Source: a virus
Taxonomy: Duplodnaviria; Caudoviricetes
DNA: 64,000 nucleotides
Direction: 5' to 3' (one strand)
Virus record (IMG/VR): IMGVR_UViG_3300030117_007612
Span: 32,001-96,000 of that record
In this document: piece by piece, positions 739 through 31,379 of the stretch
Layout of the letters: each line of letters opens with the position of its first letter
How positions within the stretch are numbered: the first letter of the stretch is position 1
Translations under genes and position numbers: made by a program
The notes under the pieces: generated by a model
Told to the model about the DNA's origin: nothing
Database searches by the model: none
The model's input: the letters and a program-made list of their open reading frames with translations, nothing else

Positions 739-764
739 TGAGGCTTAAACAAATAATTATATAA

Positions 765-771
765 CTAATTA
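765..771 (+). promoter_or_regulatory. CTAATTA motif (candidate phage late-promoter element)
   Basis: CTAATTA 20 nt before the ATG at 792, with ATAATTA at 753-759; the same core recurs before structural genes. Confidence 0.35.
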
Positions 772-791
772 TAACAACCAACTAATGTTTT

Positions 792-3924: not shown

Positions 3925-5214
3925 ATGGAAAATAAAAAACTTAAGATTCTAACAATTTCTGATCATCCGCTATCTCCATCTGGCGTAGGGACACAGACAA
4001 AATATTTTATTGAATCTTTAATTAAAACTGGAAATTATAGATTTATCTGCCTAGGCGGCGCTATTAAACATCATGACTATACCCCTGTTAAAGTGGCGCC
4101 ATACAATGAAGATTGGCTTATTTACCCTGTTGATGGATATGGTGATCACGAAAAAATTCGTTCTATTATTAGAAATGAAAAACCAGACGTATTGTGGTTT
4201 ATGACTGACCCAAGATTTTTTACGTGGCTGTGGGAAATTGAAGATGAAATTAGAGCCTTGATGCCAATGGTATACTATCACGTGTGGGATAATTACCCTG
4301 CTCCACATTTTAACAGGCAGTTTTACGAATCAAACGATGTTATCGTGACAATCTCCAAAGTAACAGATGATATTGTTTCAAAAGTTGCTCCGGATGTTGA
4401 TCGCGTATACATACCTCACGCGGTTGATCCTTCAATCTTTAGACCAACCGATGGTACTGACGAGCTTTTTAAGAACAGCATAACCGTAAGAGAAAGAGTA
4501 TTTAATGCCAGCTATGAAGAAACCAAAGATAAATTGCTTTTCTTCTGGAACAATAGAAACGCTAGACGAAAACAAAGTGGATCACTAATTTGGTGGTTTA
4601 AGAAATATCTAGACGTTGTTGGTCATGACAAAGCATCACTCTTGATGCACACAGACCCCAAAGATCCAAATGGGCAAGACTTGACGCATATAATGGAGCA
4701 TCTTGGGTTAAATAAGGGTCAAGTGATGATTTCCAACAACAAAATCTCGCCCCATGACCTAGCAGCTATGTATAATGCTGCAGATTGTACGCTTAACATT
4801 TCCGACGCTGAAGGATTTGGGTTGGCAACGCTTGAGTCTCTGTCATGTGAAACACCGATTATCGTGTGCATGACGGGCGGATTGCAAGAGCAGGTTACTG
4901 ATGGTGAAAATTGGTTTGGTTTTGGTATTGAACCAACATCAAAAGCAGTTATCGGCTCGCAACAAGTACCTTATATTTGCGAAGACAGAATATCAGAGCA
5001 AGACTTTGTCGACACGCTTGTTAAACTTACAAATCTGACAAGCGAGCAGCGAAAAGAATTAGGCCAAGCCGGCCGTCAGCATGTAATGAAAAATTATAGC
5101 TTTGAGGAATTTGAAAAAAGTTGGGTAAACACCATGAGTTCAATTGTTGAAAAGTATGGCTCATGGGAAGATAGACAAAATTATGAACGTTGGAGGCTTC
5201 TGGAGGTAGCATGA
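3925..5214 (+). CDS. Glycosyltransferase, GT-B fold (GT4-like)
   Basis: IPHAVD, NRNARRKQ, YNAADCTLNISDAEGFGLATLESLSCETPII motifs. Confidence 0.85.
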   Translation: MENKKLKILTISDHPLSPSGVGTQTKYFIESLIKTGNYRFICLGGAIKHHDYTPVKVAPYNEDWLIYPVDGYGDHEKIRSIIRNEKPDVLWFMTDPRFFTWLWEIEDEIRALMPMVYYHVWDNYPAPHFNRQFYESNDVIVTISKVTDDIVSKVAPDVDRVYIPHAVDPSIFRPTDGTDELFKNSITVRERVFNASYEETKDKLLFFWNNRNARRKQSGSLIWWFKKYLDVVGHDKASLLMHTDPKDPNGQDLTHIMEHLGLNKGQVMISNNKISPHDLAAMYNAADCTLNISDAEGFGLATLESLSCETPIIVCMTGGLQEQVTDGENWFGFGIEPTSKAVIGSQQVPYICEDRISEQDFVDTLVKLTNLTSEQRKELGQAGRQHVMKNYSFEEFEKSWVNTMSSIVEKYGSWEDRQNYERWRLLEVA

Positions 5215-6476
5215 AAAAGAAGATATTAGTTAAGGCGCCCGTTTTAACACGAAGTGGATATGGCGAGCATTCTAGATTTATATTACAAGCACTTCGCTCG
5301 CGTGAAGATTTGTTTGATATATATGTTGTTCCCTTGAACTGGGGCCAAACAAGCTGGATTATTGAATCTGATGAAGATCGAGAATGGGTTGATAAAGCAA
5401 TTCTGGAGACCACCAAATACCTGCATGAATTCAACAACGATCATGGCAATCAAGGAAAAAAGCCATTCGATATATCCCTTCAGGTAACAATTCCAAACGA
5501 ATGGGAAGACTTAGCCACAAAAAATATTGGTGTTACTGCTGGAATTGAGACCACCAAAGTTGCGCCGGCTTGGATTGAAAAAGCAAAAATGATGGACAAG
5601 ATTATTGTTCCCTCGAAACACTCTAGAGATATTTACAACAACACAGCATACCAAGCGACCAATAATATCACTAAAGAAACTTTATTGTTTAAAAACGATA
5701 CCGAGATTTCAGTAGTGCCATACTCTTCTAGAAAATTTAAACCAGCTAAGATTAATCTAGACTTCGAAACAGATTTTAATTTTTTCACAGTATCACAGTG
5801 GTCTCCTAGAAAGAATATTGAAAACACTATTAAATGGTTTATTGAAGAATTTTATGACAACTCAAATGTTGGTCTTGTTGTTAAGACCAATCTGGCGAAA
5901 AATTGCTTGATGGACAGAGAGGTTTGTTTTGAGAGGATTAAATCCTTATTGTCAGAATATAAGGAACGTGAATGTAAGGTTTATTTATTACATGGTCACA
6001 TGTCTGACGAAGAATTGGCGGCTGTTTATAAACACCCGAAAGTTAAATCCTATTACACCTTAACTCATGGAGAGGGATTTGGTTTACCAATCTTTGAAGC
6101 TGCGTGTCAAGGCTTACCGGTAATAGCACCATCTTGGAGCGGGCACTGTGATTTCTTATTTGCACCATCATCGAGAGGCAAGAATAGCAGAGCAAAATCA
6201 CACTTCTTGAAAGTCGAGTATGATCTTGAGGTCATTCCCGAACATGTGGCGTGGGATGGTGTCATAGAGAAGGATTCAATGTGGTGCGTTCCGCGCCAAG
6301 GTAGTGCGAAGATGGCACTGAGAAACATGTACAAGAATCACGAAAAGCACAAAACTGCAGCAAAGAAACTGCAAAAGTGGGCATTGAAGGAATTTTCTCC
6401 TGAAAAGCTCTATAAAGAAGTTATAAACATTTTGGAGGTTGAGGACAATGACGACGACCTTGTTGTTGTCCAGTAA
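5211..6476 (+). CDS. Glycosyltransferase, GT-B fold (GT4-like)
   Basis: TRSGYG, PRKNIE, THGEGFGLPIFEAACQGLPVIAP; start at ATG 5211 after GGAGG (ATGA overlap). Confidence 0.85.
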   Translation: MKKKILVKAPVLTRSGYGEHSRFILQALRSREDLFDIYVVPLNWGQTSWIIESDEDREWVDKAILETTKYLHEFNNDHGNQGKKPFDISLQVTIPNEWEDLATKNIGVTAGIETTKVAPAWIEKAKMMDKIIVPSKHSRDIYNNTAYQATNNITKETLLFKNDTEISVVPYSSRKFKPAKINLDFETDFNFFTVSQWSPRKNIENTIKWFIEEFYDNSNVGLVVKTNLAKNCLMDREVCFERIKSLLSEYKERECKVYLLHGHMSDEELAAVYKHPKVKSYYTLTHGEGFGLPIFEAACQGLPVIAPSWSGHCDFLFAPSSRGKNSRAKSHFLKVEYDLEVIPEHVAWDGVIEKDSMWCVPRQGSAKMALRNMYKNHEKHKTAAKKLQKWALKEFSPEKLYKEVINILEVEDNDDDLVVVQ

Positions 6477-6481
6477 TTATT

Positions 6482-7522
6482 ATGCAAGAATATTTTACAT
6501 GCAACATGTTCTCCGAGCAGAACATAGATTTTAACGGCAAATTCAAAGTAGTTCAAAAAGAACTAACGCCAGTTAATGAAAGCGAGTTAGGACCCCGCGA
6601 TATCACATATGATTGTGTGTGGGCCGGCTCAAAACAAATTGATAACACGAAGCCTTTTGTTGTTGTACCAATTAGGGATAATTCGAAATTGTTAAAATTT
6701 ACATTAAACAATTTTAAGAAAGCAAACTTTTTCAATTATGTTAATGTGATTATAGTCGATGATAGATCAGAAGAAGATCTGCATTCAATTTGTAAAGAAT
6801 ACAACACCAGCTATCTCAAGATGGATAACGATAAGGGATTTAGCTTTTCAATGCTCAACAATGTTGCTGCATACATCGCAAAGCGTTTGGGTGGCGAAAA
6901 GGTTATTTTTTGGAACAGCGATTTGTGGATTGACAAGATTTCTTATTTTAAGAAGCTTATCTCAAAACACGATTCATCCGGAGCTACAATATCAGGCTCC
7001 AAACTCCTATATCCACACAAGAGTTTACATGACGACGAACATAGTGTAAACATTAAGACACACTTTCCAAACAAGACAGACGGAAGCTATAAGGGCACTG
7101 TACAGTTTGGAAACTGTCGCTGGCTGCCAATGCAGATGCAAGCACAAGATGGAGCTTACAACGCATTTATTCCGATTCACTACAAACGATTTGCAGATAA
7201 AAGTGATCCATGTGTAAATTGTGACACCGGAACAGAATTTGTGACTGGAGCCTTGCAGGTGGTTGATTTGAATTGGTTTATTGAGAATGGCGGATACAAC
7301 CCCTCGTTGCCAAAGGTTTTTCAAGATGTTGACTTATGCTTGCGCGCAGTTACTCAAGGTAAAAAGGTAATGTATTTTGGCAAAGATATTCATTTCTTTC
7401 ACGATGAGTCATATAATCATTTCTCAAATAAAAATCAAGAAAAAATCGACACCCAGTTTCACGCCGACAGTACTTTGTTTGGTAGAATCTGGCGCGGCCG
7501 CATCGAAGCCTTAATTTTATAG
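6482..7522 (+). CDS. Glycosyltransferase family 2-like (GT-A)
   Basis: VVVPIRD, VIIVDDRS, FSFSMLNN, FWNSD, GGYNPSLPKVFQDVDLCLR. Confidence 0.8.
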   Translation: MQEYFTCNMFSEQNIDFNGKFKVVQKELTPVNESELGPRDITYDCVWAGSKQIDNTKPFVVVPIRDNSKLLKFTLNNFKKANFFNYVNVIIVDDRSEEDLHSICKEYNTSYLKMDNDKGFSFSMLNNVAAYIAKRLGGEKVIFWNSDLWIDKISYFKKLISKHDSSGATISGSKLLYPHKSLHDDEHSVNIKTHFPNKTDGSYKGTVQFGNCRWLPMQMQAQDGAYNAFIPIHYKRFADKSDPCVNCDTGTEFVTGALQVVDLNWFIENGGYNPSLPKVFQDVDLCLRAVTQGKKVMYFGKDIHFFHDESYNHFSNKNQEKIDTQFHADSTLFGRIWRGRIEALIL

Positions 7523-7530
7523 GTTACAGA

Positions 7531-8115
7531 ATGCAGAAATTTACTATTGAAGACACCAAGTTTGACGATGTCATTATAATTACTCCGCGAATTTTCACTG
7601 ATGAAAGAGGATATTTTTGTGAAACATACAATGTCGACAATCTAAAAGAGTTAGGGTTTGCTGTAGATATGGTCCAAGATAATCAATCCAAATCACAAAA
7701 AAATGTTATAAGAGGATTACATTATCAGTGGGACGAGCCCATGGGCAAATTAGTCAGAGTAATCAAAGGCTCAGTAAGAGATGTGATTGTTGATATTAGG
7801 AAATATTCCCCTACGTATGGTGAGTCTGCCTCGTTTCTACTAACAGAGGAAAACAACAAACAACTATGGGTGCCATCGGGCTTTGCCCACGGTATTTTAT
7901 CCCTTGAAGACAATACGATAGTTTCATATAAGTGTTCTAGTGTATATAATTCAAGCGGAGAATCAGGAATCAATCCTTTTGATGAATATTTGAATGTAGA
8001 TTGGGGTATTGATAAGGCAGAAGCAATTGTGTCCGAAAAGGATGCAGTTGCAAAATCATTTTTAGACTATGATCGAGATCCAAAATTCTTTAGCAAAAGA
8101 GAGGCCTCCAAATGA
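7531..8115 (+). CDS. rmlC: dTDP-4-dehydrorhamnose 3,5-epimerase
   Basis: PRIFTDERGYF, QDNQSKS, IRGLHYQ, GKLVRV, DVIVDIR, LWVPSGFAHG. Confidence 0.92.
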   Translation: MQKFTIEDTKFDDVIIITPRIFTDERGYFCETYNVDNLKELGFAVDMVQDNQSKSQKNVIRGLHYQWDEPMGKLVRVIKGSVRDVIVDIRKYSPTYGESASFLLTEENNKQLWVPSGFAHGILSLEDNTIVSYKCSSVYNSSGESGINPFDEYLNVDWGIDKAEAIVSEKDAVAKSFLDYDRDPKFFSKREASK

Positions 8116-9068
8116 AGAAGGTGTTACTGGCTGGAGGCGCCGGATTTATTGGATCGCTGCTGACCAAAGAGTTGATGAAAAGAAGATACGATGTCACTGT
8201 TGCTGATTTGTTTTGGTTTGGTGATTATCTTCCAAAAAATACAAAGGTTATAAAGAAAAACGTTATTGATCTCAATGAAGATGAATTAAAAAATTACGAC
8301 GTTGTGGTTTTTATGGGAGGCGTATCTAATGATCCCATGGCTGATTATAGCCCATCTGTTAACTTTATAGAAAACTGCGCAGTGCCATCATATCTTGCAT
8401 ATATGACAAAGCGCGCCGGCGTCAAAAGATTTATATACGCATCATCGTGTAGTGTTTATGGATACACAGCCAATAAATTAATGGATGAAACTGCGCCCGT
8501 ATCTCCAAAGTATCCTTATGGAATTTCTAAATTAGCTGTTGAGAATTCTATTATGAACATGGAGGATGAAAATTTTAGACCCATCTCCTTGCGCAAAGGA
8601 ACAGTTGGTGGCTTCTCTCCAAGGATGAGATATGATTTAGTTGTTAACGCAATGACAAAGACAGCATTGACAAAGGGCAAGATTGTAGTAAACAATCCTT
8701 CTTTGTGGCGGCCGATTATTGATATTAGAGATGTGGTGACTGCGTATATTCGTTCTATTGAGGCGAACCTAGACATCACAGGAATATATAACATCTCATA
8801 TGATAATTACACTATTGGCAGATTAGCCGATGAGATTAAAGATGAGTTATTTAATTTTGGATATGAAATCAACATTGAAACAAAAAATGTACAAGATGTC
8901 AGAAATTATAAAGTTTCAAATGAAAAAGCTAGAATAGAATTGGATTTTGTTGCGAAATATTCTCCAAAAGATTCTGTTCGTGAAATACTGACAAATATTG
9001 ATTTAGAAAATGTTGACTTTTCTGATCAGAAGTATTATAATATTCAAGTGTTCAAGGAGCTGTTTTAA
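8112..9068 (+). CDS. NAD-dependent epimerase/dehydratase (extended SDR)
   Basis: GGAGFIGS, YASSCSVYG, YGISK catalytic motif, RMRYDLVVN. Confidence 0.85.
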   Translation: MKKVLLAGGAGFIGSLLTKELMKRRYDVTVADLFWFGDYLPKNTKVIKKNVIDLNEDELKNYDVVVFMGGVSNDPMADYSPSVNFIENCAVPSYLAYMTKRAGVKRFIYASSCSVYGYTANKLMDETAPVSPKYPYGISKLAVENSIMNMEDENFRPISLRKGTVGGFSPRMRYDLVVNAMTKTALTKGKIVVNNPSLWRPIIDIRDVVTAYIRSIEANLDITGIYNISYDNYTIGRLADEIKDELFNFGYEINIETKNVQDVRNYKVSNEKARIELDFVAKYSPKDSVREILTNIDLENVDFSDQKYYNIQVFKELF

Positions 9069-9070
9069 TA

Positions 9071-9766
9071 GTGAAAATACTGCTCACTGGTGGTAGCGGC
9101 CTTTTGGGTGGCGAATTGCAAAAACTAGACAGCGCTATCGTTGCGCCCGGTAGGGCTTTGATGGATATCAACGATAAAGAATCTTGCCGGCACTGGATTG
9201 AAAAAGAAAAGCCTGATGTCTTGGTTCATGCCGCGGCATTTACCTCTCCCCCGATTTGCGAACAGGAGCCATCAAAGGCGCGCCAAACAAATATAACTGG
9301 CACCACAAATTTAGTAGATCTGTGCGAAGAGAAAAATATTAAATTTGTGTATGTCTCAACTGACTATGTTTTTGATGGCGCCCGTGGCTTATATAACACA
9401 GATGATGCCATTAATCCAATTAACAAGTATGCGTTAACGAAAGCAGCAGGAGAATTAGCCGCCAGAACTTATGAGAACAGCCTTGTCGTTAGGACTAGTT
9501 TTTGTCAAAGAGAATTTCCGTATGAGAAAGCCTTTACCGATCAATATACTAGTCGCGACTATGTTGATATTATTGCTCCAAAGATTTTAAATTGTATTAA
9601 GTCTGATTCTGTTGGAATCGTTCACATTGGCACTGAAAGAAAAACCGTTTTTGAATTAGCCAAGCGCCGAAAGCCAGACGTTGGCGAATTGAGCATAAAA
9701 GACGTCTCATTTAATCCGCCGAGAGATACATCATTTTCTGATAAGGATATGTACTGTGAACAATAA
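9071..9766 (+). CDS. rmlD: dTDP-4-dehydrorhamnose reductase-like protein (RmlD-like, short)
   Basis: GGSGLLG, VHAAAFT, YVSTDYVFDG, PINKYALTK; GTG start. Confidence 0.7.
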   Translation: MKILLTGGSGLLGGELQKLDSAIVAPGRALMDINDKESCRHWIEKEKPDVLVHAAAFTSPPICEQEPSKARQTNITGTTNLVDLCEEKNIKFVYVSTDYVFDGARGLYNTDDAINPINKYALTKAAGELAARTYENSLVVRTSFCQREFPYEKAFTDQYTSRDYVDIIAPKILNCIKSDSVGIVHIGTERKTVFELAKRRKPDVGELSIKDVSFNPPRDTSFSDKDMYCEQ

Positions 9767-10445
9767 AGTAGTATATACAGCACTATATGGCAACAAGGAT
9801 GTATTGAAAGAACCTTTAGTGATAAGTGAAGGCTTCGATTATGTTTGTTTTACTGACGATAAAGAATTGAAATCTAATGTTTGGGAATGTAGGTATACTC
9901 CGCCGGAACATACAGATCCTGTTCGTAGTGCTAAGATATTTAAAGCCAAACCGCACGAATATTTTCCAGATCACGAAGTAAGTTTGTGGGTAGATGCTAA
10001 TTTTCTTATTAAATCGGATTTAAATTTGTTTCTAGAAATAACAAATAATCTTGAAGGTGCAAACATGTCGCTGTTTCAGCACGATCAGGGGCGCAATTGC
10101 ATCTATGACGAAGCAGAGATAATTATACACGACAAAAAAGACGATCCTGAGATAGTCAACAGCCAAATGGAAAAATATAAGTCAGAAAATTATCCCAAAA
10201 ATTATGGACTTACTGCAAATTCAATTTTACTTCGGCGCCATAATTCTGATGATATTACCGAATTATCTGATTTATGGTGGGAAGAGATTGACAACTACAG
10301 TAGACGAGATCAATTGAGTTTTTGCTATTGTTTGTGGAAAAAATCAGTGAAATATTACTTATTAAGATATCCAGATATAGATATCCGTAATAATGAATGG
10401 TTTCATTGGCTCCCTCACAATTACGAATTACAAAAATGGAGTTAA
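9756..10445 (+). CDS. DUF616/TOD1-MUCI70-like glycosyltransferase
   Basis: VVYTALYGNKD, DYVCFTD, SLWVDAN, RNCIYDEA, RRDQLSF. Confidence 0.7.
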   Translation: MNNKVVYTALYGNKDVLKEPLVISEGFDYVCFTDDKELKSNVWECRYTPPEHTDPVRSAKIFKAKPHEYFPDHEVSLWVDANFLIKSDLNLFLEITNNLEGANMSLFQHDQGRNCIYDEAEIIIHDKKDDPEIVNSQMEKYKSENYPKNYGLTANSILLRRHNSDDITELSDLWWEEIDNYSRRDQLSFCYCLWKKSVKYYLLRYPDIDIRNNEWFHWLPHNYELQKWS

Positions 10446-10446
10446 A

Positions 10447-11157
10447 ATGCTATCAGTAGTAATAGCAACATATAACAGGGCTGAAGTCCTTAGACAAAAT
10501 TTAGAGAAATTTAATGAACAAACAGATAAAGATTTCGAAGTTGTTGTCGCGATGGATGGCTCTACTGATAATACAGTAGAAATGCTGGAAAATTTCAAAT
10601 CAGATTTCTCAATCAAGTGGGTTGACACCGAAGAGACTGAAAAGTATTGTTTAGCAAAAGCTAGAAACATGGGATTAGTAGAGTGCTCCGGTGAAGCCGT
10701 TGTTGTACTGGATGACGATAGTTTTCCGACGCCCGATTTTGTTAAGGCACACAAACAATCGGTACGCCAACGAGTACTAACCGGAGGATATAGAAACTCT
10801 CACGATCCCAACGATCCGATGCACTCTAAGATGCAAAATCTTTTAAACAAATACGGCAATTGCAATCCGCACCCTATCACTGAGCTGTTGGTAGAAAATA
10901 ACTGTTGCATGTTGAGAAAAGATTGGATAGGGTGCGGAATGTTCTCTGAGAGGTTTGAGGGGTACGGCGGTTGTGGACAAGAGTTTTTTCACAGATTAGC
11001 TTACCTTGGATATGGTTATCAGTTCAACCCTAGCGCAATGATTTACCATCACAAGGAATTTGAGGGCGATAACGGATTAACAAGAGAAATGAAAACAGAA
11101 CAGGCAAGGCAGATGTCTGAATTAATTTACAAACATGCATGGAGTTATAATAAATAA
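10447..11157 (+). CDS. Glycosyltransferase family 2
   Basis: LSVVIATYNR, FEVVVAMDGSTD, ARNMG, VVLDDD; start at ATG 10447. Confidence 0.85.
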   Translation: MLSVVIATYNRAEVLRQNLEKFNEQTDKDFEVVVAMDGSTDNTVEMLENFKSDFSIKWVDTEETEKYCLAKARNMGLVECSGEAVVVLDDDSFPTPDFVKAHKQSVRQRVLTGGYRNSHDPNDPMHSKMQNLLNKYGNCNPHPITELLVENNCCMLRKDWIGCGMFSERFEGYGGCGQEFFHRLAYLGYGYQFNPSAMIYHHKEFEGDNGLTREMKTEQARQMSELIYKHAWSYNK

Positions 11158-11874
11158 ATGAGCAATGTAGACATATTTGATATGATAGGTGAAAAACTGG
11201 AAAATGTTATTCTACCTGAAGAATACCAACAATTGTGGGACGATATTAATCTCCCAATTCAATTAGAGAAAGCCCAAAGAATGGCTCCCTTGTGGGGCCC
11301 AGATATTAAGCAATCTATGGGGAGTGTTGAATATCTTTCCGAACGCGACAAAATTTTAGAAAAACTTTCCAAGAGAGCTTATTATTTAACTCAAATTGCA
11401 CAAAAATTTAATGCCAAGAATATTGTCGAAATCGGCACCGCCCAAGGCTGGCAGTTTTACAGCTTCGCAGAGTACTGCCAACAGAATGATGGACATGTTT
11501 GGAGTTGCGATATTGAAGATAAACATAGCAAAACACACGCAGAAATATACTCCAATTCAGCCACCTTTGTACATGGGGATAGTGCCAAGTTGGCAGATCA
11601 CATTGAAAGCCTTGGGGTTAAAATTGATATGTTTTATATCGATGGCTCACATGAGGAGGGCGCCGTTTTGCAAGACGTAAAGAATCTAAAGAAAATACAA
11701 ACCGATGAAAAAACACCAGTCTGGATTTTTGATGATTACGATGAAAGATTTGGCTGTTATAATGACATTCATAAAATTGCTAAAATGGCAGAACAATACA
11801 TGGTATACTCTCCGGGTAGGACAGCCAGCAACAACCCAACGCATCAAATGCTACTTTTAGGAAGGTTTAAGTGA
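11158..11874 (+). CDS. Class I SAM-dependent methyltransferase (Methyltransf_24-like)
   Basis: IVEIGTAQG, FVHGDS, FYIDGSHEEGAVLQD, IFDDY. Confidence 0.78.
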   Translation: MSNVDIFDMIGEKLENVILPEEYQQLWDDINLPIQLEKAQRMAPLWGPDIKQSMGSVEYLSERDKILEKLSKRAYYLTQIAQKFNAKNIVEIGTAQGWQFYSFAEYCQQNDGHVWSCDIEDKHSKTHAEIYSNSATFVHGDSAKLADHIESLGVKIDMFYIDGSHEEGAVLQDVKNLKKIQTDEKTPVWIFDDYDERFGCYNDIHKIAKMAEQYMVYSPGRTASNNPTHQMLLLGRFK

Positions 11875-13713: not shown

Positions 13714-13720
13714 GGTATAA

Positions 13721-16486: not shown

Positions 16487-16501
16487 AATTGTTATTATAA
16501 T
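16473..16501 (+). promoter_or_regulatory. Perfect sigma70 consensus promoter for glycan operon 2
   Basis: TTGACA(16473-16478)-N17-TATAAT(16496-16501), followed by an AAGGAG RBS and the ATG at 16520. Confidence 0.85.
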
Positions 16502-16519
16502 ATATAAAAAGGAGATGTT

Positions 16520-20179: not shown

Positions 20180-20961
20180 AAAAAGGTATTTTTATAACTG
20201 TGCGCACAAATTCTTCTCGACTGCCCAACAAAGCTTTGATGAAGATATGTGGCAAGCCTACAATTCAATATGCAATTGATCGAGCAAAACAATCCTCATG
20301 TGCGGATGTAATCGTGTTGTGCACCAGTACATCAAACAATGATGACGCATTGTGCGAAATAGCCCACAAGAATGGAATTGAATGTTTTCGCGGAAGCCTG
20401 ATTGATAAGATTGATCGTTGGCTTCAGGCGGCACTTGAATACAAAGTGGATTACTTTGTTAACATCGATGGCGACGATCTTTTTTGCGAACCAGAATTGA
20501 TTGATATGGCATTCGAGCAGCACGATAAAGAAGATCACGACTTTGTAAAGTGCGACGAAGAGAATCTTGTAGTGGGGGCATTCACCCTTGGCGCCAAGAC
20601 AACTGCAATACAGAAAGTGTGTGATATAAAAGACACTGAGGACACCGAGGCCGCGTGGCTTTATTTTTCTGACATGGATATTTTTAAAACTTCCTTGCTA
20701 GAGAACGTTCCAGAATCCTACAACAGACCAGACATCAGAGCAACGTTGGATTATTATGATGACTTTCTTTTCTTTAGTAATATAATTGAATACTTTGGCG
20801 CGCAAAAAAAATCTAGATTTTCTTTATTAGATGTGGTAAAATATGTTGACGAAAACCCAAGAGTGTTGGATATCAACCGAAATTGCCAGCAAGAATATTT
20901 AAACAATCAACAAAAATTAACAAAGCTAATTGTAAAAAAGGAGTATAATGAACGAGCATAA
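20176..20961 (+). CDS. Acylneuraminate/SpsF-type cytidylyltransferase
   Basis: ITVRTNSSRLPNKAL, FRGS, VNIDGDD, RATLDYYDD. Confidence 0.82.
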   Translation: MKKGIFITVRTNSSRLPNKALMKICGKPTIQYAIDRAKQSSCADVIVLCTSTSNNDDALCEIAHKNGIECFRGSLIDKIDRWLQAALEYKVDYFVNIDGDDLFCEPELIDMAFEQHDKEDHDFVKCDEENLVVGAFTLGAKTTAIQKVCDIKDTEDTEAAWLYFSDMDIFKTSLLENVPESYNRPDIRATLDYYDDFLFFSNIIEYFGAQKKSRFSLLDVVKYVDENPRVLDINRNCQQEYLNNQQKLTKLIVKKEYNERA

Positions 20962-21934
20962 ATTGAAAGAAAGGGTGACGTACCAGTCCGGAGAATGGGT
21001 TCCGGAATCGCAAGCTTCCCTCCATATTTATGATTCACAGTTCATGTTTGGTGACGGTGTCTTTGAGATGGCAAGAACTTTTAACCACAAGTTTTTCATT
21101 CTTGATGAACATATCGACAGACTATTTCGCAGCATGCGATATCTGCAGATCCCGATTACCAAGACCAAACAGGAAGTTCGAGATTTGTGTGAAGAGGCCC
21201 TTGAAAGAAACATAGAACATTTCAAGCAATCTGGCGGTGGATTTACCGAAGAGTGTCGTATATTAATAAATGTATCTAGAGGACCTTTATCGATTTATCG
21301 CGAAGTGTTTGAATTAACTAAGGGTGAGAAATGGAATGAACCAAATTGGATTATCAATGTTTGGCCACTTAGCCGAACTTCCAAGACTCTATCACATTAT
21401 TTCGAAACAGGGGCAAATGCAATTATACCCTCACAAAGACAGATCCCTTCGCGACTGCTTGAGAACAAAGTAAAAAATAGAAGTAGAATGCACTATCAAA
21501 TGGCAAACTTACAAGTTAAACCCTTCGGAAAAGATGCAATACCTCTGCTTTTAGATGAAGACGGCTTTGTAACTGAGAGCACCGGAGCAAACTTTTTGAT
21601 GATCAAGGACGGTAAGCTAATCGCACCTGAGTTAAGAAACATGTTGCGAGGCTCTAGTATGATGTATATTTTGGAAACGATCGCACCTCAAATTAATTTG
21701 GAGGTTGTGCACAAGAATTTTGAGCCTTACGATGTCATGCAGTGTGACGAGGCAATGTTTACAGGTACGTTCGTCAATTTGCTCCCTTGTAACCGTTTAA
21801 ACGGCGAATATTTCAATAATAACGTAAAAAACAGCCCAATTGGGCCAATAACACGCCAAATTTGCGACACTTGGTCAGAAAATGTGGGTCTAAATTTCAT
21901 CGAACAAATGCAATATTGGGCTAATAATTGGTAA
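20948..21934 (+). CDS. PLP-dependent aminotransferase class IV
   Basis: FGDGVFEMART, HIDRLFRS, KVKNRSR lysine motif, LLLDEDGFVTESTGANF, EAMFTGT. Confidence 0.85.
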   Translation: MNEHKLKERVTYQSGEWVPESQASLHIYDSQFMFGDGVFEMARTFNHKFFILDEHIDRLFRSMRYLQIPITKTKQEVRDLCEEALERNIEHFKQSGGGFTEECRILINVSRGPLSIYREVFELTKGEKWNEPNWIINVWPLSRTSKTLSHYFETGANAIIPSQRQIPSRLLENKVKNRSRMHYQMANLQVKPFGKDAIPLLLDEDGFVTESTGANFLMIKDGKLIAPELRNMLRGSSMMYILETIAPQINLEVVHKNFEPYDVMQCDEAMFTGTFVNLLPCNRLNGEYFNNNVKNSPIGPITRQICDTWSENVGLNFIEQMQYWANNW

Positions 21935-21938
21935 ATTT

Positions 21939-22622
21939 ATGAATAAAAGAATCATCATTACAGGCTCAGAGGGCCTTTTAGGAACAGAAATAAGCAGATA
22001 TTTGGAAGAATCGGGCAACACTGTGATTCGGTGCGACCTACAATTGGGTCATGATCTAACTGATGAGCAATTTGTTAAAGATTTTTTTGAAAAAAACAAG
22101 GCAGACTGCCTAGTAAACACTTATGCTATTAATCCACATGTTGGTACTGAGGACGAATCGACAAATATGTTCAATATCGACCTAGAATCTTTGAATCAAT
22201 ACCTTCAAGTTAACCTACTTAGCTTGTTTTCTGTATGCAGGGAGTTTGCCAAGAGCAATGAGAATGGTTCGATAGTTAATTTTTCATCCACTTATGGTGT
22301 TGTTTCCCCCAATCCTGCGTTATATGATGAAGGAAAGGAAAAACACATCGGCTATTGCATATCAAAATCAGGTGTAATCCAAATGACACGATACCTAGCG
22401 GTGCATCTGGCGCCCAAGTTCCGTGTAAATTGTGTTGCGCCCGGAGGATGTGGCATGAACACTGGCGAAGAATTTGTAAAGTTGTATGCTGATAAGACGC
22501 CAATGAAAAGAATGATGAACGTCGATGAACTAAACGGAATAATTGAATATCTTTGCTCTGATAAATCAACCTATACCACGGGTGCAAACATTAACGTCGA
22601 CGGAGGCTGGACGATATGGTAA
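21939..22622 (+). CDS. Classical SDR oxidoreductase
   Basis: TGSEGLLG, IVNFSSTYG, YCISK, RVNCVAPGG, GANINVDGGW. Confidence 0.85.
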   Translation: MNKRIIITGSEGLLGTEISRYLEESGNTVIRCDLQLGHDLTDEQFVKDFFEKNKADCLVNTYAINPHVGTEDESTNMFNIDLESLNQYLQVNLLSLFSVCREFAKSNENGSIVNFSSTYGVVSPNPALYDEGKEKHIGYCISKSGVIQMTRYLAVHLAPKFRVNCVAPGGCGMNTGEEFVKLYADKTPMKRMMNVDELNGIIEYLCSDKSTYTTGANINVDGGWTIW

Positions 22623-23464
22623 ACTTTAAGGACATTCAAAAACCCTATTTTATTGGTGAGATTGGAATCAACCACAATGGAGATTTACAAATTGCAAAGA
22701 AGCTGATTGACGCTGTTTGCGCGTGTAGTTGGGATTGTGCAAAATTTCAAAAAAGAAATCCTGATGTTTGCGTACCAGAACATCAAAAGAGCGTACCGAG
22801 GGAAACACCTTGGGGCACAATGACATATCTGGATTATAAACATCGTATTGAATTTGAGAAAAAGGAATATGATTATATTGATAATTACTCAAAGCAAAAA
22901 CCAATTGACTGGACCGCGTCAGTGTGGGATTTAGATAGTCTAGATTTTATGACTCAATATGACGTACCCTTCTTAAAAATTCCATCTGCTAAGATCACAA
23001 GCTTGGATTTGTTGGCCGAGTCGGCAAAGTCTGGTATACCAATTATTATGTCTACTGGAATGTCAGAGCTTCGCGAGGTAGACACTGCCGTCAATGAAGT
23101 TTTAAAACACACCGACAACCTTGTCCTGATGCACACTAATTCAAGCTATCCTTCTCCAGAAAGTGAATTAAACTTGAGCTTGATCCCATTTTATAAAGAA
23201 AGATATGATTGTGTTATTGGTTATTCGGGCCACGAAATGGACCTAGAGCCAACAGTAGTGGCAGTAGTTTTGGGAGCAAAGGTGATTGAGCGACACATTA
23301 CACTGTCACATGACATGTGGGGAACAGATCAAAAATCAAGTTTGGAGGTTATTGCAATGGATATGCTATACAAAAGAATCAAAAACATTGATATAATGAT
23401 AGGTGAACCAATTAAGCATGTCACAAAAAGTGAAGTTCCAATCAAGAAAAAATTAAGAGGATAG
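22616..23464 (+). CDS. neuB: N-acetylneuraminate synthase family protein lacking the C-terminal AFL/SAF domain
   Basis: FIGEIGINHNGD, AKFQKR, KIPSA, IIMSTGMS, MHTNSSYP, GYSGHE, VIERHITL; only 282 aa. Confidence 0.9.
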   Translation: MVNFKDIQKPYFIGEIGINHNGDLQIAKKLIDAVCACSWDCAKFQKRNPDVCVPEHQKSVPRETPWGTMTYLDYKHRIEFEKKEYDYIDNYSKQKPIDWTASVWDLDSLDFMTQYDVPFLKIPSAKITSLDLLAESAKSGIPIIMSTGMSELREVDTAVNEVLKHTDNLVLMHTNSSYPSPESELNLSLIPFYKERYDCVIGYSGHEMDLEPTVVAVVLGAKVIERHITLSHDMWGTDQKSSLEVIAMDMLYKRIKNIDIMIGEPIKHVTKSEVPIKKKLRG

Positions 23465-23465
23465 C

Positions 23466-23801
23466 ATGGTAATTTACGTAGATATTGATGAAACAATTTG
23501 CAATACCCCTGAGAGTAGGGACTATTCTGAAGCAAAACCAATTAAAGAAAACATCAACAAAATTAATGATTTATATGATGAAGGGCATGAAATTGTCTAT
23601 TGGACTGCTCGTGGCACGTTAACCGGGAAAGATTGGACAGAAGTAACCAAAAAGCAATTTAAAGAGTGGGGAGTTAAGTATCACGATTTAAAGCTCAAGA
23701 AGCCTTTCTACGATCTTTTTATTGATGACCGGGCAATTAATTCTGATATGTATTTTCAAAATAATAACAGAAAGGGAGACGTAAATTGGCAATGGACTTG
23801 A
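23466..23801 (+). CDS. Small HAD-superfamily phosphatase
   Basis: YVDIDETIC, YWTARG, KKPFYDLFIDD. Confidence 0.8.
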   Translation: MVIYVDIDETICNTPESRDYSEAKPIKENINKINDLYDEGHEIVYWTARGTLTGKDWTEVTKKQFKEWGVKYHDLKLKKPFYDLFIDDRAINSDMYFQNNNRKGDVNWQWT

Positions 23802-24082
23802 GACAATACTACAAATATTATCTTACCCTCCACCAAAACATAAATTGCCGGCGACTTCACTTTGCGGGTCAATGGGTTACACTGTTCTTTTTATTTTGGG
23901 TATTGTATACAAATACTCTATACTTGTTGCCCTTGGCGTTGTTTGTGATATATCCATTTGCATGGACCGGTCATTTCTTTTTTGAAAAAAATGAGCCCGC
24001 TGCTTTTAAGGCGCCAGTCAAGGCCAAGATATGCGATTGGATTATGTTTAAAGATATCATCTTGGGGAGAATTAAAATATGA
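23786..24082 (+). CDS. DUF962/Mpo1-like small membrane protein
   Basis: YLTLHQN..CRRLHFAG, hydrophobic helix, FAWTGHFFFEKNEPAAF; alternative start at ATG 23792. Confidence 0.8.
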   Translation: MAMDLRQYYKYYLTLHQNINCRRLHFAGQWVTLFFLFWVLYTNTLYLLPLALFVIYPFAWTGHFFFEKNEPAAFKAPVKAKICDWIMFKDIILGRIKI

Positions 24083-24999
24083 TTAACCTGATGCACGTTA
24101 ACGATTACATCATCGACACCAGCAAATTCCGCCCGCTACTACATGATAAGATCGTTGATGAGTTTGAACAAAATATAGCGGACTTTGTTGGGGCTAAGTA
24201 TGCATGCTCATTTCACAGCGCCACAATGGCAATATTCTTAGCGTTGGTTGAAAAGTCTCGGGAGACAATTATAATCCCCAGTGTTATACCACCCGTTGTA
24301 GCAAACGCCATCCTGTGTTCTGGTCATGGTCTAGGCTATCGTGACGATGTAAATTGGGTCGGAAACTCCTACATCCTTCACCAATTTGAGGATCATAAAA
24401 TTATTGATTCTGCCCAGCAGCTTACAGAGAACCAGTTTAAAGAACAGGCTAATGATGAGGACTTAATGATTTTTAGTTTTTATCCTACAAAGCCTGTAGG
24501 TAGTAGCGATGGTGGCCTAATTGTGTCTAATGACAAGGAAAAGATTGACCGGTTGAGAATTTTATCTAGAAATGGAATGTCTCTTGAAAAGAATAGCTGG
24601 GAAAGAAACATACTTTTGCCCGGCTGGAAGATGTATATGAATTCAATTCAGGCTTATATTGCTTATGAAAACTTTAAGAAACTTGAATCAAAAACAAAAA
24701 GGTATAATGAAATTAGAGAAGAGTATAATAGCGCCTTTGACAAAAACAATACAAGTCTCCATCTTTATAGATTAAATGTTGAAGATAACGATTCCTTTGT
24801 TTTAGATATGAAAGAGAAAGGAATCCAGTGTGGAATTCATTATAAAGCAATTCACTTAATGGGCGCATACTCTCGGGCCGGCCTAGATTTGCCAAAATCC
24901 GAGCAAGAAAGTAGAACAACGATCAGTATTCCATACCATGAGATGCTCACGGATGAACAGGTGGAGACTGTTATTAAGGAGATTAAAAATGTTATCTGA
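24079..24999 (+). CDS. DegT/DnrJ/EryC1/StrS sugar aminotransferase (compact)
   Basis: IIDSAQ, FSFYPTKPVGSSDGG with PLP lysine, GIQCGIHY, TISIPYH. Confidence 0.82.
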   Translation: MINLMHVNDYIIDTSKFRPLLHDKIVDEFEQNIADFVGAKYACSFHSATMAIFLALVEKSRETIIIPSVIPPVVANAILCSGHGLGYRDDVNWVGNSYILHQFEDHKIIDSAQQLTENQFKEQANDEDLMIFSFYPTKPVGSSDGGLIVSNDKEKIDRLRILSRNGMSLEKNSWERNILLPGWKMYMNSIQAYIAYENFKKLESKTKRYNEIREEYNSAFDKNNTSLHLYRLNVEDNDSFVLDMKEKGIQCGIHYKAIHLMGAYSRAGLDLPKSEQESRTTISIPYHEMLTDEQVETVIKEIKNVI

Positions 25000-25360
25000 G
25001 AACGGAACAAAAGAAACAGGCATCCTACGCTATATGGAACTGACCGATTTGAAATTTATCCCTAGAAGAATGTATTATATTACTGATACACCAAAGGGAG
25101 AAATTAGAGGAAAACATGGCCACTACGACGATCAGCAATATCTATTCTGCCTTCAAGGCGAGATAAAAGTAGAACTACACTCTATTAAAGAAGTGCGCAC
25201 GGTCTGGATGCGCGCCGGCGATGTTGTGTTTCTTGATAGAATGGTGTGGTCACAACAGCAGTATTTAACCGGCAACGACATTTTGTTGGTACTGTGTTCT
25301 ACGGCATTCGACAAAAAAGACTATATCACAGATATCAATGAGATAACGGGTGATAAATAA
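24989..25360 (+). CDS. FdtA/QdtA-like sugar 3,4-ketoisomerase (cupin)
   Basis: PRRMYYI, RGKHGH, QYLFCLQG, ILLVLCS, DYI; start at ATG 24989. Confidence 0.8.
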   Translation: MLSENGTKETGILRYMELTDLKFIPRRMYYITDTPKGEIRGKHGHYDDQQYLFCLQGEIKVELHSIKEVRTVWMRAGDVVFLDRMVWSQQQYLTGNDILLVLCSTAFDKKDYITDINEITGDK

Positions 25361-26244
25361 TGGCGAGATGCATGGTCACAGGCCATAAAGGCTATATAGG
25401 TTCGAAATTATATCAAGCATTGCTGGATGATGGTCATGATGTAATAGGCATTGATTTAAAAAGTGAAATTCCTCATGACATCTTGGTGGACTTAAAAGAA
25501 GGATCCGACGGAAAATTTCATCCTTATTGGTATAATTTTAAACCAGAGTATATTTTTCATTTAGCTTGTTGGCCAAGAGTTGCATTTAGTATAGAGAAGC
25601 CAGTTGCAACAGCAATAAATAACATTCTTTCCAACTCTATAATGTTAAATTTTGCTAGAAAAGTTGGTTCGGTTAAAAGGTTTATTTATTCTAGCTCTTC
25701 TTCCGTTGTTGGGAATGGTTCTGGCCCCGAGAGTCCGTATGCATTACAAAAATATACAGCCGAGGTGGAGTGCACATTGTATTCTAAGCTTTACGATTTG
25801 GACACTGTCGCTCTTAGGTATTTCAACGTATACTCCCCTGATCAGAAGGTCGACGGGGCATATGCTACGGCTGTTGCGAATTGGATGAAGTTTATTAGAG
25901 AAGGCGAAGATCCCTATATTACCGGAGATGGGGAACAACGAAGAGATATGGTAAATGTTGCGGACGTTGTTTCCGCAAATATATTTGCCATGAATTACCC
26001 AGAGAGCCTTAATGGTCAAGTTTTTGACGTTGGTACAGGCGAGAATATATCGTTAAATGAGCTAAAAGATATCGTAGAAGAACTGCAGCCACATGTTAAT
26101 TTTGAATATAAACCTGAACGCCCGGGCGATGTGCAATTAACTAGGGCAAATACGGAGCCCTTAAAAAAAATAGGATGGCGTGCTAATATTAGTATACGTG
26201 ATGGCATGGTTGAATGCTTCAAGGATTTAGTGAAAGATGTCTGA
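25360..26244 (+). CDS. NAD-dependent NDP-sugar epimerase/dehydratase
   Basis: TGHKGYIGS, YSSSSS, YALQK, LRYFNVY, GDGEQRRD, ERPGDV. Confidence 0.85.
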   Translation: MARCMVTGHKGYIGSKLYQALLDDGHDVIGIDLKSEIPHDILVDLKEGSDGKFHPYWYNFKPEYIFHLACWPRVAFSIEKPVATAINNILSNSIMLNFARKVGSVKRFIYSSSSSVVGNGSGPESPYALQKYTAEVECTLYSKLYDLDTVALRYFNVYSPDQKVDGAYATAVANWMKFIREGEDPYITGDGEQRRDMVNVADVVSANIFAMNYPESLNGQVFDVGTGENISLNELKDIVEELQPHVNFEYKPERPGDVQLTRANTEPLKKIGWRANISIRDGMVECFKDLVKDV

Positions 26245-27079
26245 TGTTGTTGGTATTGTTGGTCAAGGTTTTGTTGGCACAGCTATAAGAGAAGGCTTGT
26301 GTCACTTGTTCCAAATTGAAACTTATGATAAGTTCAAGAAAGAAGCGTCTACCTCTTATAGTGTAGAGGAGCTGTGCACGAAAACGAAAATCATATTTGT
26401 ATGCTTACCAACGCCAATGAAAAAAGACGGAACGTGTGATTTATCCCTTATACAAAACACAATTGAAAAAATAGACAAAGTATCAAACAAGCACGTAGCT
26501 GTTATAAAATCAACAGTGCCGCCGGGGACAACCAAGAAATTAAACAAGATGTGCAATGATTTGCAGGTAGTCTTTAATCCTGAATTTTTGACGGAAGCAA
26601 ATTACATTGATGATTTTAAGAATCAGAATAGAATTATTATAGGTGGACCCCGGCCGGCCTCAACAATTGTCAAGAATCTATACAGAAAAGCCTTCCAACA
26701 AACGCCAATAGTAAAAACAGGCTCAGATACTGCTGAGATGGTAAAGTACTTTACAAACTGTTTTCTTGCAATGAAGGTTAGTTTTGCTAATGAAATCAAA
26801 CAAGTATGTGATGCACACAGAATTGATTTTGACAAAGTGGTAGAATACGCTCTTTATGATCAAAGAATAGGAAATACACACTTATCAGTTCCCGGTCCTG
26901 ATGGCAAAAATGGATTTGGCGGCTCTTGTTTCCCCAAAGATTTAAACGCGTTGATACAGTTTGCGCTCGCTAGCGAGATTGATCCGAAAGTTTTGTCTGC
27001 AATTTGGAATAAAAATTTGGAAGTTAGACCCGAAAAAGATTGGGAATTGTTAAAGGGGAGGGCGGTATCTGATGCCTGA
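26237..27079 (+). CDS. ugd: UDP-glucose 6-dehydrogenase family protein (short)
   Basis: VGQGFVG, FVCLPTP, VIKSTVPPGT, FNPEFL, AEMVKYFTN, GFGGSCFPKD. Confidence 0.85.
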   Translation: MSDVVGIVGQGFVGTAIREGLCHLFQIETYDKFKKEASTSYSVEELCTKTKIIFVCLPTPMKKDGTCDLSLIQNTIEKIDKVSNKHVAVIKSTVPPGTTKKLNKMCNDLQVVFNPEFLTEANYIDDFKNQNRIIIGGPRPASTIVKNLYRKAFQQTPIVKTGSDTAEMVKYFTNCFLAMKVSFANEIKQVCDAHRIDFDKVVEYALYDQRIGNTHLSVPGPDGKNGFGGSCFPKDLNALIQFALASEIDPKVLSAIWNKNLEVRPEKDWELLKGRAVSDA

Positions 27080-27428
27080 ATTGCCAATGAAGCACGTAGA
27101 TAAAGGTTGGGGCTGGGAACGCTGGATTGTCAATAATGAGGAATATTGTGGAAAGCTCCTGTTTTTTAATTCTGGCAAAAGATGCTCATGGCATTATCAT
27201 GTTTTAAAAGATGAGGTCTTTTACTTGCAATCCGGAAAAATGATGATTTATTATTCAGAACAGGATGATATTACAAAAGCAAAACAATTGATTTTGAAAG
27301 CCGGCGATAATTTTCATATATATCGCGGCTTGAGACACCAAATGGTAGCATTAGAAGACTCAGAATTATTTGAATTTTCAACACAACACTTTGATAGTGA
27401 TAGCCACAGAATATTAAAAGGAGATTAA
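27072..27428 (+). CDS. Cupin, mannose-6-phosphate isomerase-like
   Basis: KGWGWERW, CSWHYH..KDEVFY, HQM cupin metal ligands. Confidence 0.75.
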   Translation: MPELPMKHVDKGWGWERWIVNNEEYCGKLLFFNSGKRCSWHYHVLKDEVFYLQSGKMMIYYSEQDDITKAKQLILKAGDNFHIYRGLRHQMVALEDSELFEFSTQHFDSDSHRILKGD

Positions 27429-27636: not shown

Positions 27637-27641
27637 AGTAT

Positions 27642-31365: not shown

Positions 31366-31379
31366 GCCCAGAGGAAGAA

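Follow-up and report, generated by a model that had tools for sequence, protein, structure and literature searches.

A hypervariable glycan-synthesis island with a conserved glycosyltransferase pair and no detectable export genes in a lineage of marine myoviruses

Introduction

Clusters of 'lipopolysaccharide (LPS)-like' genes have been known from lytic marine phages for twenty years and raise the question of what such a phage would build with them and on what. We take up this question for an island of glycan genes in a 64,000-nucleotide (nt) stretch of DNA, hereafter the window, which covers bases 32001-96000 of the IMG/VR record IMGVR_UViG_3300030117_007612, a 203,368-bp virus genome with a CheckV completeness of 100%. 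The genome has the features of a lytic-type marine myovirus (baseplate, sheath, PhoH), and the sources are marine (Tara and JGI). By the listing of open reading frames (ORFs), 29 ORFs, all on the + strand, span positions 3925-27428 of the window, as part of a block (792-27428) in which intergenic gaps are all shorter than 35 nt. A first-pass annotation, made from the sequence alone, had described 25 co-oriented contiguous genes at this place; their co-orientation holds, and their number is 29. It took them for an autonomous, undescribed pathway that glycosylates virion proteins or phage DNA and needs no export machinery. We report that the locus is a hypervariable glycan locus of an abundant marine myovirus lineage with genomes of ~170-200 kb, and we weigh which target its enzymes may serve.

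A fixed-position island with exchangeable content

The island starts directly behind a PD-(D/E)XK nuclease gene. Used as a query, this gene recovered 58 IMG/VR loci, and homologs of the island genes were sought in the 10 kb downstream. The features that define the island and its borders, including two adjacent glycosyltransferases (GTs) of family GT4, are:

3142..3915, +: PD-(D/E)XK nuclease, conserved left flank of the island; PHROG exonuclease; syntenic in the 58 IMG/VR relatives and in phages immuto and Mel-JY01
3925..5214, +: GT4a, retaining-type GT-B glycosyltransferase; Pfam Glycos_transf_1 and GT4-conflict; EX7E motif E296..E304
5190..6476, +: GT4b, second conserved GT4; Pfam Glycos_transf_1, 27.5 bits; E295..E303
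27433..27896, +: two small ORFs at the right border (67 amino acids (aa), and 87 aa with a Zn ribbon); syntenic in relatives
28178..28900, +: conserved right flank, weakly similar to a late sigma factor (phrog_234, E 3e-4); 61-73% identity in relatives G001-G005

The locus is a fixed-position hypervariable island, in which the nuclease and the GT4 pair are kept by nearly all relatives and the cassette behind them is swapped. GT4a is present in 57/58 relatives and GT4b in 54/58, at 42-66% identity; most island genes beyond the pair have homologs in 0-11 of the 58. In five complete relatives of 171-196 kb (G001-G005), 15-24 kb separate the nuclease from the sigma-like gene, and the content in between differs. 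Islands of relatives contain Gmd, a PfkB protein with a cytidylyltransferase (heptose-type, RfaE-like), C-methyltransferases, nucleotidyltransferases and other short-chain dehydrogenases/reductases (SDRs) and DegTs, and the small genes that recur among them encode HAD, cupin, Mpo1-like, SDR3 and Ugd-like proteins. Proteins of the Zn_ribbon_8 family are present in the islands of five relatives.

The gene block is real and phage-borne. Two closer relatives, a 192-kb contig whose GT4a is 95% identical and a 167-kb Tara contig whose GT4a is 80% identical, have their island genes in the same order up to the twelfth or beyond. In comparison with the 95% relative, dN/dS is 0.006-0.06 (dS 0.7-1.4) for island genes and 0.02-0.09 (dS 0.7-1.0) for the flanking phage genes. 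Such strong purifying selection, with silent-site divergence matching that of the flanks, indicates that the island is old in the lineage, functional and no chimera. The opposite case, in which assembly or contamination joined a cellular LPS or exopolysaccharide (EPS) locus to phage sequence, had been held up by the first-pass annotation as what would undo its reading. Related contigs binned into metagenome-assembled genomes (MAGs) of several phyla could at first hint at such a cellular origin, but MAG contigs with checked flanks show PhoH, nuclease and GT4 in phage order, the same synteny recurs in the 58 IMG/VR contigs, in Tara scaffolds and in cultured phages, and GC content is even across the island junctions. 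Together with the dS values, this synteny rules the chimera out, and we regard it as next to impossible.

The order PD-(D/E)XK nuclease-GT4-GT4-sugar genes is also found in two cultured phages, Flavobacterium phage immuto (host LMO8) and Microcystis phage Mel-JY01. The first-pass annotation had set the island beside the virion genes. This is so in the present genome: upstream are PhoH and the nuclease, and downstream come the gene for the weakly sigma-like protein, the baseplate wedge genes (gp25- and gp6-like) and giant ORFs. The distance from the island to the baseplate wedge gene is, however, 32 kb in immuto and 80 kb in Mel-JY01, so adjacency to virion genes is not a conserved feature; the conserved link is the nuclease. 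In Mel-JY01 the GT4a homolog is annotated as two adjacent ORFs of 573 and 909 nt (12001-13489 of the retrieved locus), which may reflect a split or frameshifted gene, or an insertion.

A conserved, phage-specific GT4 pair

The EX7E motif is kept in at least 95% of ~50 relatives, in GT4a and GT4b alike, and GT4b carries a fused GT2 domain in some of the relatives. The two proteins are predicted to form a heterodimer. Modeled as a complex, GT4a and GT4b reached a score of 0.86, a mark attained by 51/78 solved complexes and by 2/108 mismatched pairs, and the best of three controls scored 0.00; the runs share at least 95% of contacts, with a partner pLDDT of at least 87.

In metagenomes GT4a forms more than 8000 clusters at 90% identity. 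No full-length cellular ortholog was found among 185,579 species genomes: there were 11 full-length matches, and the six whose flanks were checked all show PhoH-nuclease-GT4 synteny, which identifies these as phage contigs binned into MAGs. Contigs of the lineage are binned as Pelagibacter, Maricaulis, Woesearchaeota, Flavobacteriales, Gammaproteobacteria and a WOR-3 'chromosome' (CP070664.1, ~1.48-1.50 Mb); this placement is likely binning or assembly contamination and provides no dependable host signal.

Distant homologs of GT4a (23-25% identity over ~320 aa) occur in small siphoviruses, within head modules. The order is major capsid-GT4-methyltransferase-GT2-neck in phiPsal1 and portal-GT4-GT-methyltransferase in S-CBS4, a layout that resembles that of Corndog, where a methyltransferase and three GTs (MT-GT-GT-GT) stand ahead of the major head gene. 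Among solved structures, the best matches of GT4a include BshA and MshA, which use small soluble acceptors; the chlorovirus GT B736L (PDB 3oy2) is its second-best match and the best match of GT4b. GT4a also scores 33 bits against the Pfam family 'GT4 in conflict systems' (cut-off 26).

Enzymes encoded behind the pair

Island ORFs were assigned to families by profile searches with Pfam and NCBIfam. Besides the GT4 pair, the island comprises:

6482..7522, +: GT2a glycosyltransferase; Pfam Glycos_transf_2
7531..8115, +: RmlC, dTDP-4-dehydrorhamnose 3,5-epimerase; family match 207 bits; TIGR01221 205.8 bits, cut-off 155.75
8112..9068, +: extended SDR 1, epimerase or reductase of nucleoside diphosphate (NDP)-sugars; Pfam Epimerase; below every NCBIfam equivalog
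9071..9766, +: RmlD-like reductase, 231 aa; matches positions 1-151 of 287 of RmlD_sub_bind (N-terminal half only)
9756..10445, +: TOD1/MUCI70 (DUF616) GT-like protein; Pfam PF04765, E 5e-20
10393..11157, +: GT2b glycosyltransferase; Pfam Glycos_transf_2, E 2e-24
11158..11874, +: methyltransferase dependent on S-adenosylmethionine (SAM); Pfam Methyltransf_24
11871..12821, +: CgeB-like Glyco_trans_1_2 transferase; Pfam, E 1e-21
12808..13713, +: GT15-like transferase a; Pfam Glyco_transf_15, E 1e-16
13721..14449, +: GT8-like transferase; Atlas features 0.97 to GT8 clusters; homolog in relative L086 with PF01501
14436..15521, +: GT15-like transferase b; Pfam
15479..16486, +: extended SDR 2, best match Fcl-like and below cut-off; Pfam Epimerase, E 6e-44; NF047922 100.8 bits, cut-off 500
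16520..17143, +: CstII/Cst-I-like (GT42-fold) candidate nonulosonate transferase, 207 aa; AlphaFold2 (AF2) model and Foldseek; Atlas
17122..17754, +: sulfotransferase a (Sulfotransfer_2); Pfam, E 6e-12
17751..18485, +: sulfotransferase b (Sulfotransfer_2); Pfam, E 2e-14
18482..20179, +: radical SAM protein resembling B12-binding (class B) methyltransferases; Pfam Radical_SAM; sub-threshold NCBIfam matches to PhpK and Sden_1168 B12-rSAM
20176..20961, +: CMP-ulosonate cytidylyltransferase (CTP_transf_3); Pfam, E 3e-20, 73 bits (cut-off 22.6); KdsB- and PseF-like matches below cut-off
20948..21934, +: class IV aminotransferase; Pfam Aminotran_4, E 2e-39
21939..22622, +: short-chain dehydrogenase; PRK09186- and PtmA-like, below cut-off
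22616..23464, +: NeuB-family nonulosonate synthase without SAF domain; Pfam NeuB 215 bits (cut-off 22.1); TIGR03569 219 bits, cut-off 399.65
23466..23801, +: small HAD-type phosphatase, recurrent in relatives' islands; TIGR01689, weak; homologs in eight relatives
23786..24082, +: Mpo1-like (DUF962) protein, recurrent in relatives; Pfam, E 5e-28
24079..24999, +: DegT/PseC-type sugar aminotransferase, short, 306 aa; Pfam, E 7e-37
24938..25360, +: FdtA/WxcM-like 3,4-ketoisomerase cupin; Pfam FdtA, E 5e-23
25360..26244, +: extended SDR 3, TviC/GalE-like epimerase; profile matches; homolog of 63% identity in G001
26237..27079, +: minimal nucleotide-sugar dehydrogenase, Ugd-like; TIGR03026 210 bits, cut-off 189.8
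27072..27428, +: cupin, recurrent in relatives; Pfam Cupin_2; at most 88% identity in relatives

These family matches place clustered NDP-sugar synthesis genes together with GTs and agree with the inventory of the first-pass annotation, to which they add the CTP_transf_3 cytidylyltransferase, the class IV aminotransferase, the short SDR, the small HAD phosphatase, the Mpo1-like protein and the cupin. Its GT8 call stands as well: the gene has no Pfam match of its own, and the Atlas features and the PF01501 match of the relative's homolog both point to that family. The GT15-like paralogs that flank it are 54% identical to each other.

Several island proteins are short for their families. The RmlD-like protein has the same length in relatives of 80-95% identity, at a dN/dS of 0.04. 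The Ugd-like protein keeps GxGxxG and the GGSCFPKD cysteine motif, lacks the C-terminal domain and is equally long in G001 and G002. Given conserved lengths and purifying selection, the RmlD-, Ugd- and DegT-like genes, though short, are no pseudogenes. The same two observations, together with the gapless succession of the genes, led us to reject an alternative genetic code as the reason for their shortness.

Some families have further copies elsewhere in the genome: a third Sulfotransfer_2 paralog lies far outside the island at genome positions 169192-169899 (42-44% identity to both island copies), and a second cupin paralog lies at genome positions 180421-180819.

A nonulosonate module with a CstII-fold protein

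The protein encoded at 16520-17143 has no sequence-family match in Pfam or NCBIfam. Its AF2 model (pLDDT 81) finds CstII and Cst-I (1ro8, 2p2v) as its top PDB matches in Foldseek, with prob 1.0, TMq 0.50-0.58 and 14-20% identity, a match at the level of the fold only; the first-pass call of a CstII-like protein is thereby upheld. As in bacterial nonulosonate pathways that use GT42 enzymes (Campylobacter CstII, Cst-I) or Maf, a NeuB-family synthase, a CTP_transf_3 cytidylyltransferase and a candidate transferase of CstII fold are encoded in one block. Unlike in those pathways, the synthase lacks a SAF domain and scores below the NeuB and PseI equivalog cut-offs, the transferase is just 207 aa long, and none of the early enzymes for the hexosamine precursor (NeuC, PseB/C/H/G, LegB/C/H/G) reaches an NCBIfam equivalog in the island. 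A 9-phosphate (Kdn-like) route that employs the HAD phosphatase may apply instead.

Missing export machinery and dependence on the host

Every ORF of the complete genome was scanned for membrane segments by Kyte-Doolittle hydropathy, a crude method, but one in which flippases or polymerases with 10-12 transmembrane (TM) segments would show. The scan found no multi-TM protein in the island, and neither it nor Pfam detected a flippase, polymerase, ABC exporter or priming transferase in the island or the rest of the genome; a polyprenyl-phosphate priming transferase of the WecA/WbaP type is absent from the Pfam matches of all island ORFs. ORFs with at least four TM segments number zero in the 58 relatives' loci and five full islands. 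The first-pass annotation had seen no multi-TM Wzx/Wzy/ABC exporter or priming enzyme in the island, and had allowed for such genes elsewhere in the genome; the genome-wide hydropathy scan and Pfam confirm the former and detect none of the latter. The island thus shares NDP-sugar and GT genes with Wzx/Wzy- or ABC-transporter-dependent surface polysaccharide loci and differs from them in that no priming enzyme, flippase, polymerase or exporter is detectable. Soluble GTs, for their part, do not speak against lipid-linked acceptors: bacterial O-antigen GTs are likewise soluble or peripheral, and a host could prime, flip and ligate.

The sole strongly hydrophobic protein of the genome, of 892 aa with about nine hydrophobic segments (residues 548-780), is encoded 85 kb away at genome positions 142448-145126. 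Pfam assigns it to no family, and tblastn against 50,697 phage records gave no match; it may be a tape-measure or ejection protein. A minus-strand ORF with three TM segments at 27513-27947 was considered as a small membrane component and rejected: it is antisense to the two + strand ORFs at the right border that are syntenic in relatives, and is therefore probably spurious.

The pathway also leans on its host. The genome lacks an NDP-sugar pyrophosphorylase (PF00483, NTP_transferase-type) and an adenosine 5'-phosphosulfate (APS) kinase, so activated primary sugars and 3'-phosphoadenosine 5'-phosphosulfate (PAPS) would have to be made by the host; no SDR reaches the RmlB equivalog in NCBIfam. 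With these functions missing and no NeuC, Pse or Leg early enzyme recognizable, 'autonomous', the word chosen by the first-pass annotation, says too much.

A promoter-like element ahead of the block

764..773, +: promoter-like element ACTAATTATA; 28 nt before the PhoH start; heads the gapless block 792-27428

The + strand of the genome contains 35 copies of the motif ACTAWWTA, of which 23 sit 18-75 nt upstream of a + strand start, where 2.1 are expected. Within the window it starts at 764, 31307 and 58898, and a variant TCTAATTATA with a CTAATTATA core is found at 38381. It stands ahead of PhoH, two tail sheath genes and several genes of unknown function, and a similar element precedes PhoH in most relatives. 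ACTAWWTA probably marks the promoters of a transcription class specific to the phage. A search for RNA sequencing runs covering window positions 3925-13900 listed none. The two tail sheath genes are tandem paralogs (1009 and 990 aa; genome positions 134132-137161 and 137289-140261). In both proteins an N-terminal extension of ~650 aa comes ahead of the sheath domain, and the two genes share the sequence that lies upstream of them, ...GAAATACTATTTAC...

What the glycan may be attached to

We lean, short of calling it probable, towards virion glycosylation, in which a phage-made, virion-bound protein would be modified in the cytoplasm; glycosylation there would make an exporter unnecessary. We favor this reading because more than 60 islands contain no export gene, because the GT4 pair is found only in phages and across host phyla, and because distant GT4s lie in head modules. 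The host would provide primary activated sugars, phosphoenolpyruvate (PEP), PAPS, SAM and cobalamin. Phage enzymes could convert these into a rhamnose-type 6-deoxyhexose donor (RmlC, RmlD-like), a 3-amino-3,6-dideoxyhexose or uronate-type donor (FdtA, DegT, SDR3, Ugd-like) and a CMP-activated nonulosonate (NeuB, HAD, cytidylyltransferase). The GT4a:GT4b pair and a GT2 would make the conserved inner part of the glycan, which six or seven variable GTs would extend; the CstII-like enzyme would add a nonulosonate cap, and sulfo- and methyltransferases would decorate the product. Candidate acceptors are fibers or capsid decoration, and the outcome would be strain-specific glycan 'serotypes' of particles. 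The full form of this proposal, that the lineage coats its particles with strain-specific, sulfated, nonulosonate-capped O-glycans primed by GT4a:GT4b and finished by swappable cassettes, we put forward more tentatively, as a possibility that falls well short of an expectation.

One fiber-like protein of 1451 aa, encoded past the window end at genome positions 122699-127054, consists of 34% Ser+Thr (genome mean 13%) and 17% Gly. Its N-terminal 440 aa are Ser/Thr/Gly tandem repeats of ~50 aa, followed by repetitive beta-helix-like units; conservation, seen in the immuto 'tail fiber' and in G002, is confined to the C-terminal 130 aa. This Ser/Thr-rich fiber is a possible O-glycan acceptor in the present phage. 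Like the head-module position of the distant GT4s, the fiber, the predicted GT4a:GT4b complex and the promoter-like element that the island block shares with two tail sheath genes point to the acceptor indirectly.

Several points weigh against a virion target. The Ser/Thr-rich part of the fiber is not conserved, which excludes it as the common acceptor for a GT4 pair that is itself conserved. The GT4a:GT4b prediction is a model's confidence, and its pass may reflect likeness to solved GT-B complexes. Between GT4a and the mycobacteriophage GTs Che8 gp108-110 and Corndog gp34-38, BLASTP gave no match at E <=0.01. ACTAWWTA also precedes non-structural genes, which leaves late timing unproven. Soluble GTs can use undecaprenyl-linked acceptors that the host primes, flips and ligates, and O-antigen and capsule loci, whose families (GT2, GT4, GT8, Rml, DegT, FdtA, NeuB) are those of the island, are just as typically hypervariable.

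These last points lead to the reading in which the phage enzymes extend or replace a lipid-linked O-antigen, capsule or S-layer glycan that the host primes, exports and ligates. Such remodeling of the host envelope could serve superinfection exclusion, less adsorption of progeny to debris, or grazer avoidance, and comparable clusters have been read as host-surface modification: the 24 LPS genes of P-SSM2, the pelagimyophage islands and S-SCSM2R (PMC1079782, PMC7029224, PMC12801897). The hypervariable island between conserved flanks mirrors bacterial O-antigen loci, and for a phage that needs host NDP-sugars and PAPS, reliance on host export is not far-fetched. We judge host-envelope remodeling somewhat unlikely, and nonetheless a serious rival because of the O-antigen-type families and hypervariability, the ability of GTs to work on lipid-linked acceptors and the activation of sugars by the host. 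It has to accommodate a GT4 pair that has no cellular ortholog and is common to phages of Bacteroidota, of Cyanobacteria and of unknown marine hosts; a phage-encoded acceptor explains this conservation more easily, though a shared undecaprenyl-pyrophosphate-sugar acceptor is possible. None of the more than 60 islands holds a flippase, polymerase or ligase, genes that cellular loci move with new glycan chemistry; the distant GT4a homologs lie in the head modules of small phages; and a lytic infection leaves little time in which such a polymer on the cell surface could make a difference.

Targets outside both virion and envelope fare worse. A cytoplasmic protein of host or phage, modified for takeover or for protection from proteases or defense, or a soluble small molecule would suit the solubility of all island proteins, the structural match of GT4a to BshA and MshA and its score against the conflict-system GT4 family. 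We hold this to be quite improbable, as some ten transferases together with capping and sulfation imply a long exposed glycan, neither a metabolite nor a regulatory mark, and hypervariability at the level of strains suits an exposed surface under diversifying selection. Phage DNA, the alternative acceptor of the first-pass annotation, is an unlikely target, and DNA glycosylation as protection from restriction has very little to recommend it in our estimate. The island does lie directly behind a nuclease gene, in a neighborhood of DNA metabolism, but we know of no sulfated, nonulosonate-capped glycans of such size on DNA. The complete genome lacks a hydroxymethylase of the thymidylate-synthase type (PF00303; the control search was positive in 10/14 genomes) and also DpdA/TGT. 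Multi-GT DNA hypermodification does exist in other phages (Pyle 2024, as cited in PMC12619734); however, liquid chromatography with ultraviolet and tandem mass spectrometric detection (LC-UV-MS/MS) of the DNA of immuto, which carries a homologous GT4 pair and sugar island, gave dA, dC, dT and fdPreQ1 only (PMC10516641).

Relation to known systems

Large LPS-like clusters of lytic marine myoviruses are in the literature: a 24-gene LPS cluster in P-SSM2 (PMC1079782), host-recognition islands with LPS-like or cell-wall modification genes in pelagimyophages (PMC7029224) and 22 genes including 13 GTs in S-SCSM2R (PMC12801897). The first-pass label of an 'undescribed system' was therefore too strong, and phage 'LPS gene' clusters and hypervariable, GT-rich islands of marine myoviruses count as known since 2005. 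The present island shares with these a lytic marine myovirus background, tens of GT and NDP-sugar genes, content that varies between syntenic relatives and the fact that exporter genes are unreported. It differs in belonging to a lineage related to immuto and Mel-JY01, in forming a single 29-gene block fixed behind a nuclease and in having a conserved GT4 pair predicted to be heterodimeric. Further additions are sulfotransferases, a B12-type radical SAM protein and a nonulosonate module that includes a candidate CstII-like transferase. New here are the size and chemistry of the example, the fixed locus with its GT4 pair and swappable cassette, the predicted GT4a:GT4b complex and the link to cultured relatives.

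Closer in proposed mechanism are the mycobacteriophages Corndog and Che8, whose virions are glycosylated on capsid and tail tube proteins (Freeman 2023, as reported in PMC12363180). The cassettes Che8 gp108-110 and Corndog gp35-38 are reported likewise to combine soluble GTs and a methyltransferase without export genes, and we propose the same mechanism here. They comprise only 3-4 genes, include no donor synthesis and belong to phages of actinobacterial hosts; they show no BLASTP similarity to GT4a, GT4b or the GT2s.

Chlorovirus capsid glycans and Mimivirus fibril glycans are made with virus-encoded donor synthesis and soluble GTs, which glycosylate virion proteins in the cytoplasm. The island resembles these machineries of giant viruses in encoding both donor synthesis and soluble GTs and in varying its content between lineages; unlike it, they belong to eukaryotic viruses, and the sequence similarity, seen with chlorovirus B736L, is weak (E 2e-6 and 1e-4). 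Another parallel is GtfA/GtfB, which initiate cytoplasmic O-glycosylation of serine-rich repeat adhesins in Gram-positive bacteria and in which GtfB is non-catalytic. As there, two adjacent, co-conserved GT-B proteins, here with a predicted complex, are accompanied by variable GT2 and GT8 extenders and would act in the cytoplasm, and the acceptor of GtfA/GtfB, too, is Ser/Thr-rich. In contrast to GtfB, GT4b keeps its EX7E motif (E295..E303, in at least 95% of relatives), and the Ser/Thr-rich fiber is neither adjacent nor conserved. GtfA and GtfB are not named among the PDB sequence matches of the GT4 pair, matches that bear the molecule names given by depositors.

The locus is among the largest and chemically richest examples of its kind, with some ten transferases, deoxy-, amino- and nonulosonate sugars, sulfation and methylation. 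Since the cultured phages immuto and Mel-JY01 share the island, the choice between a virion coat and a modified host surface is directly testable. If the virion were the target, ocean phage particles would carry diverse acidic glycan coats, with effects on adsorption, aggregation, grazing and recognition by defenses. Particle coating, if true, would imply phage 'serotypes' parallel to bacterial O-antigen diversity and would explain the purpose of the 'LPS genes' known since 2005.

Other features of the genome

The name 'Moraphages' (PMC12619734) was considered for this lineage and dropped, as its sole tie to the genome was a mention of core GTs. The giant ORFs downstream of the island encode 2186, 3902, 1395 and more than 1069 aa. 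The 3902-aa ORF (window positions 41835-53543) has a GC content of 0.47-0.49, above the rest of the window, and a sole Pfam match, to a concanavalin A-like lectin/glucanase domain (Laminin_G_3) at residues 187-368; it is probably a giant fiber. For the ORF at 29200-30336, no relative was retrieved from the viral contig collection. Just upstream of the window, the intergenic stretch at genome positions 31328-31459 looks tRNA-like, with a TCT anticodon loop, as judged by eye alone. In the structural region, a 349-aa protein (genome positions 117204-118253) has a weak match to PhuZ-type tubulin (phrog_4733, E 5e-4).

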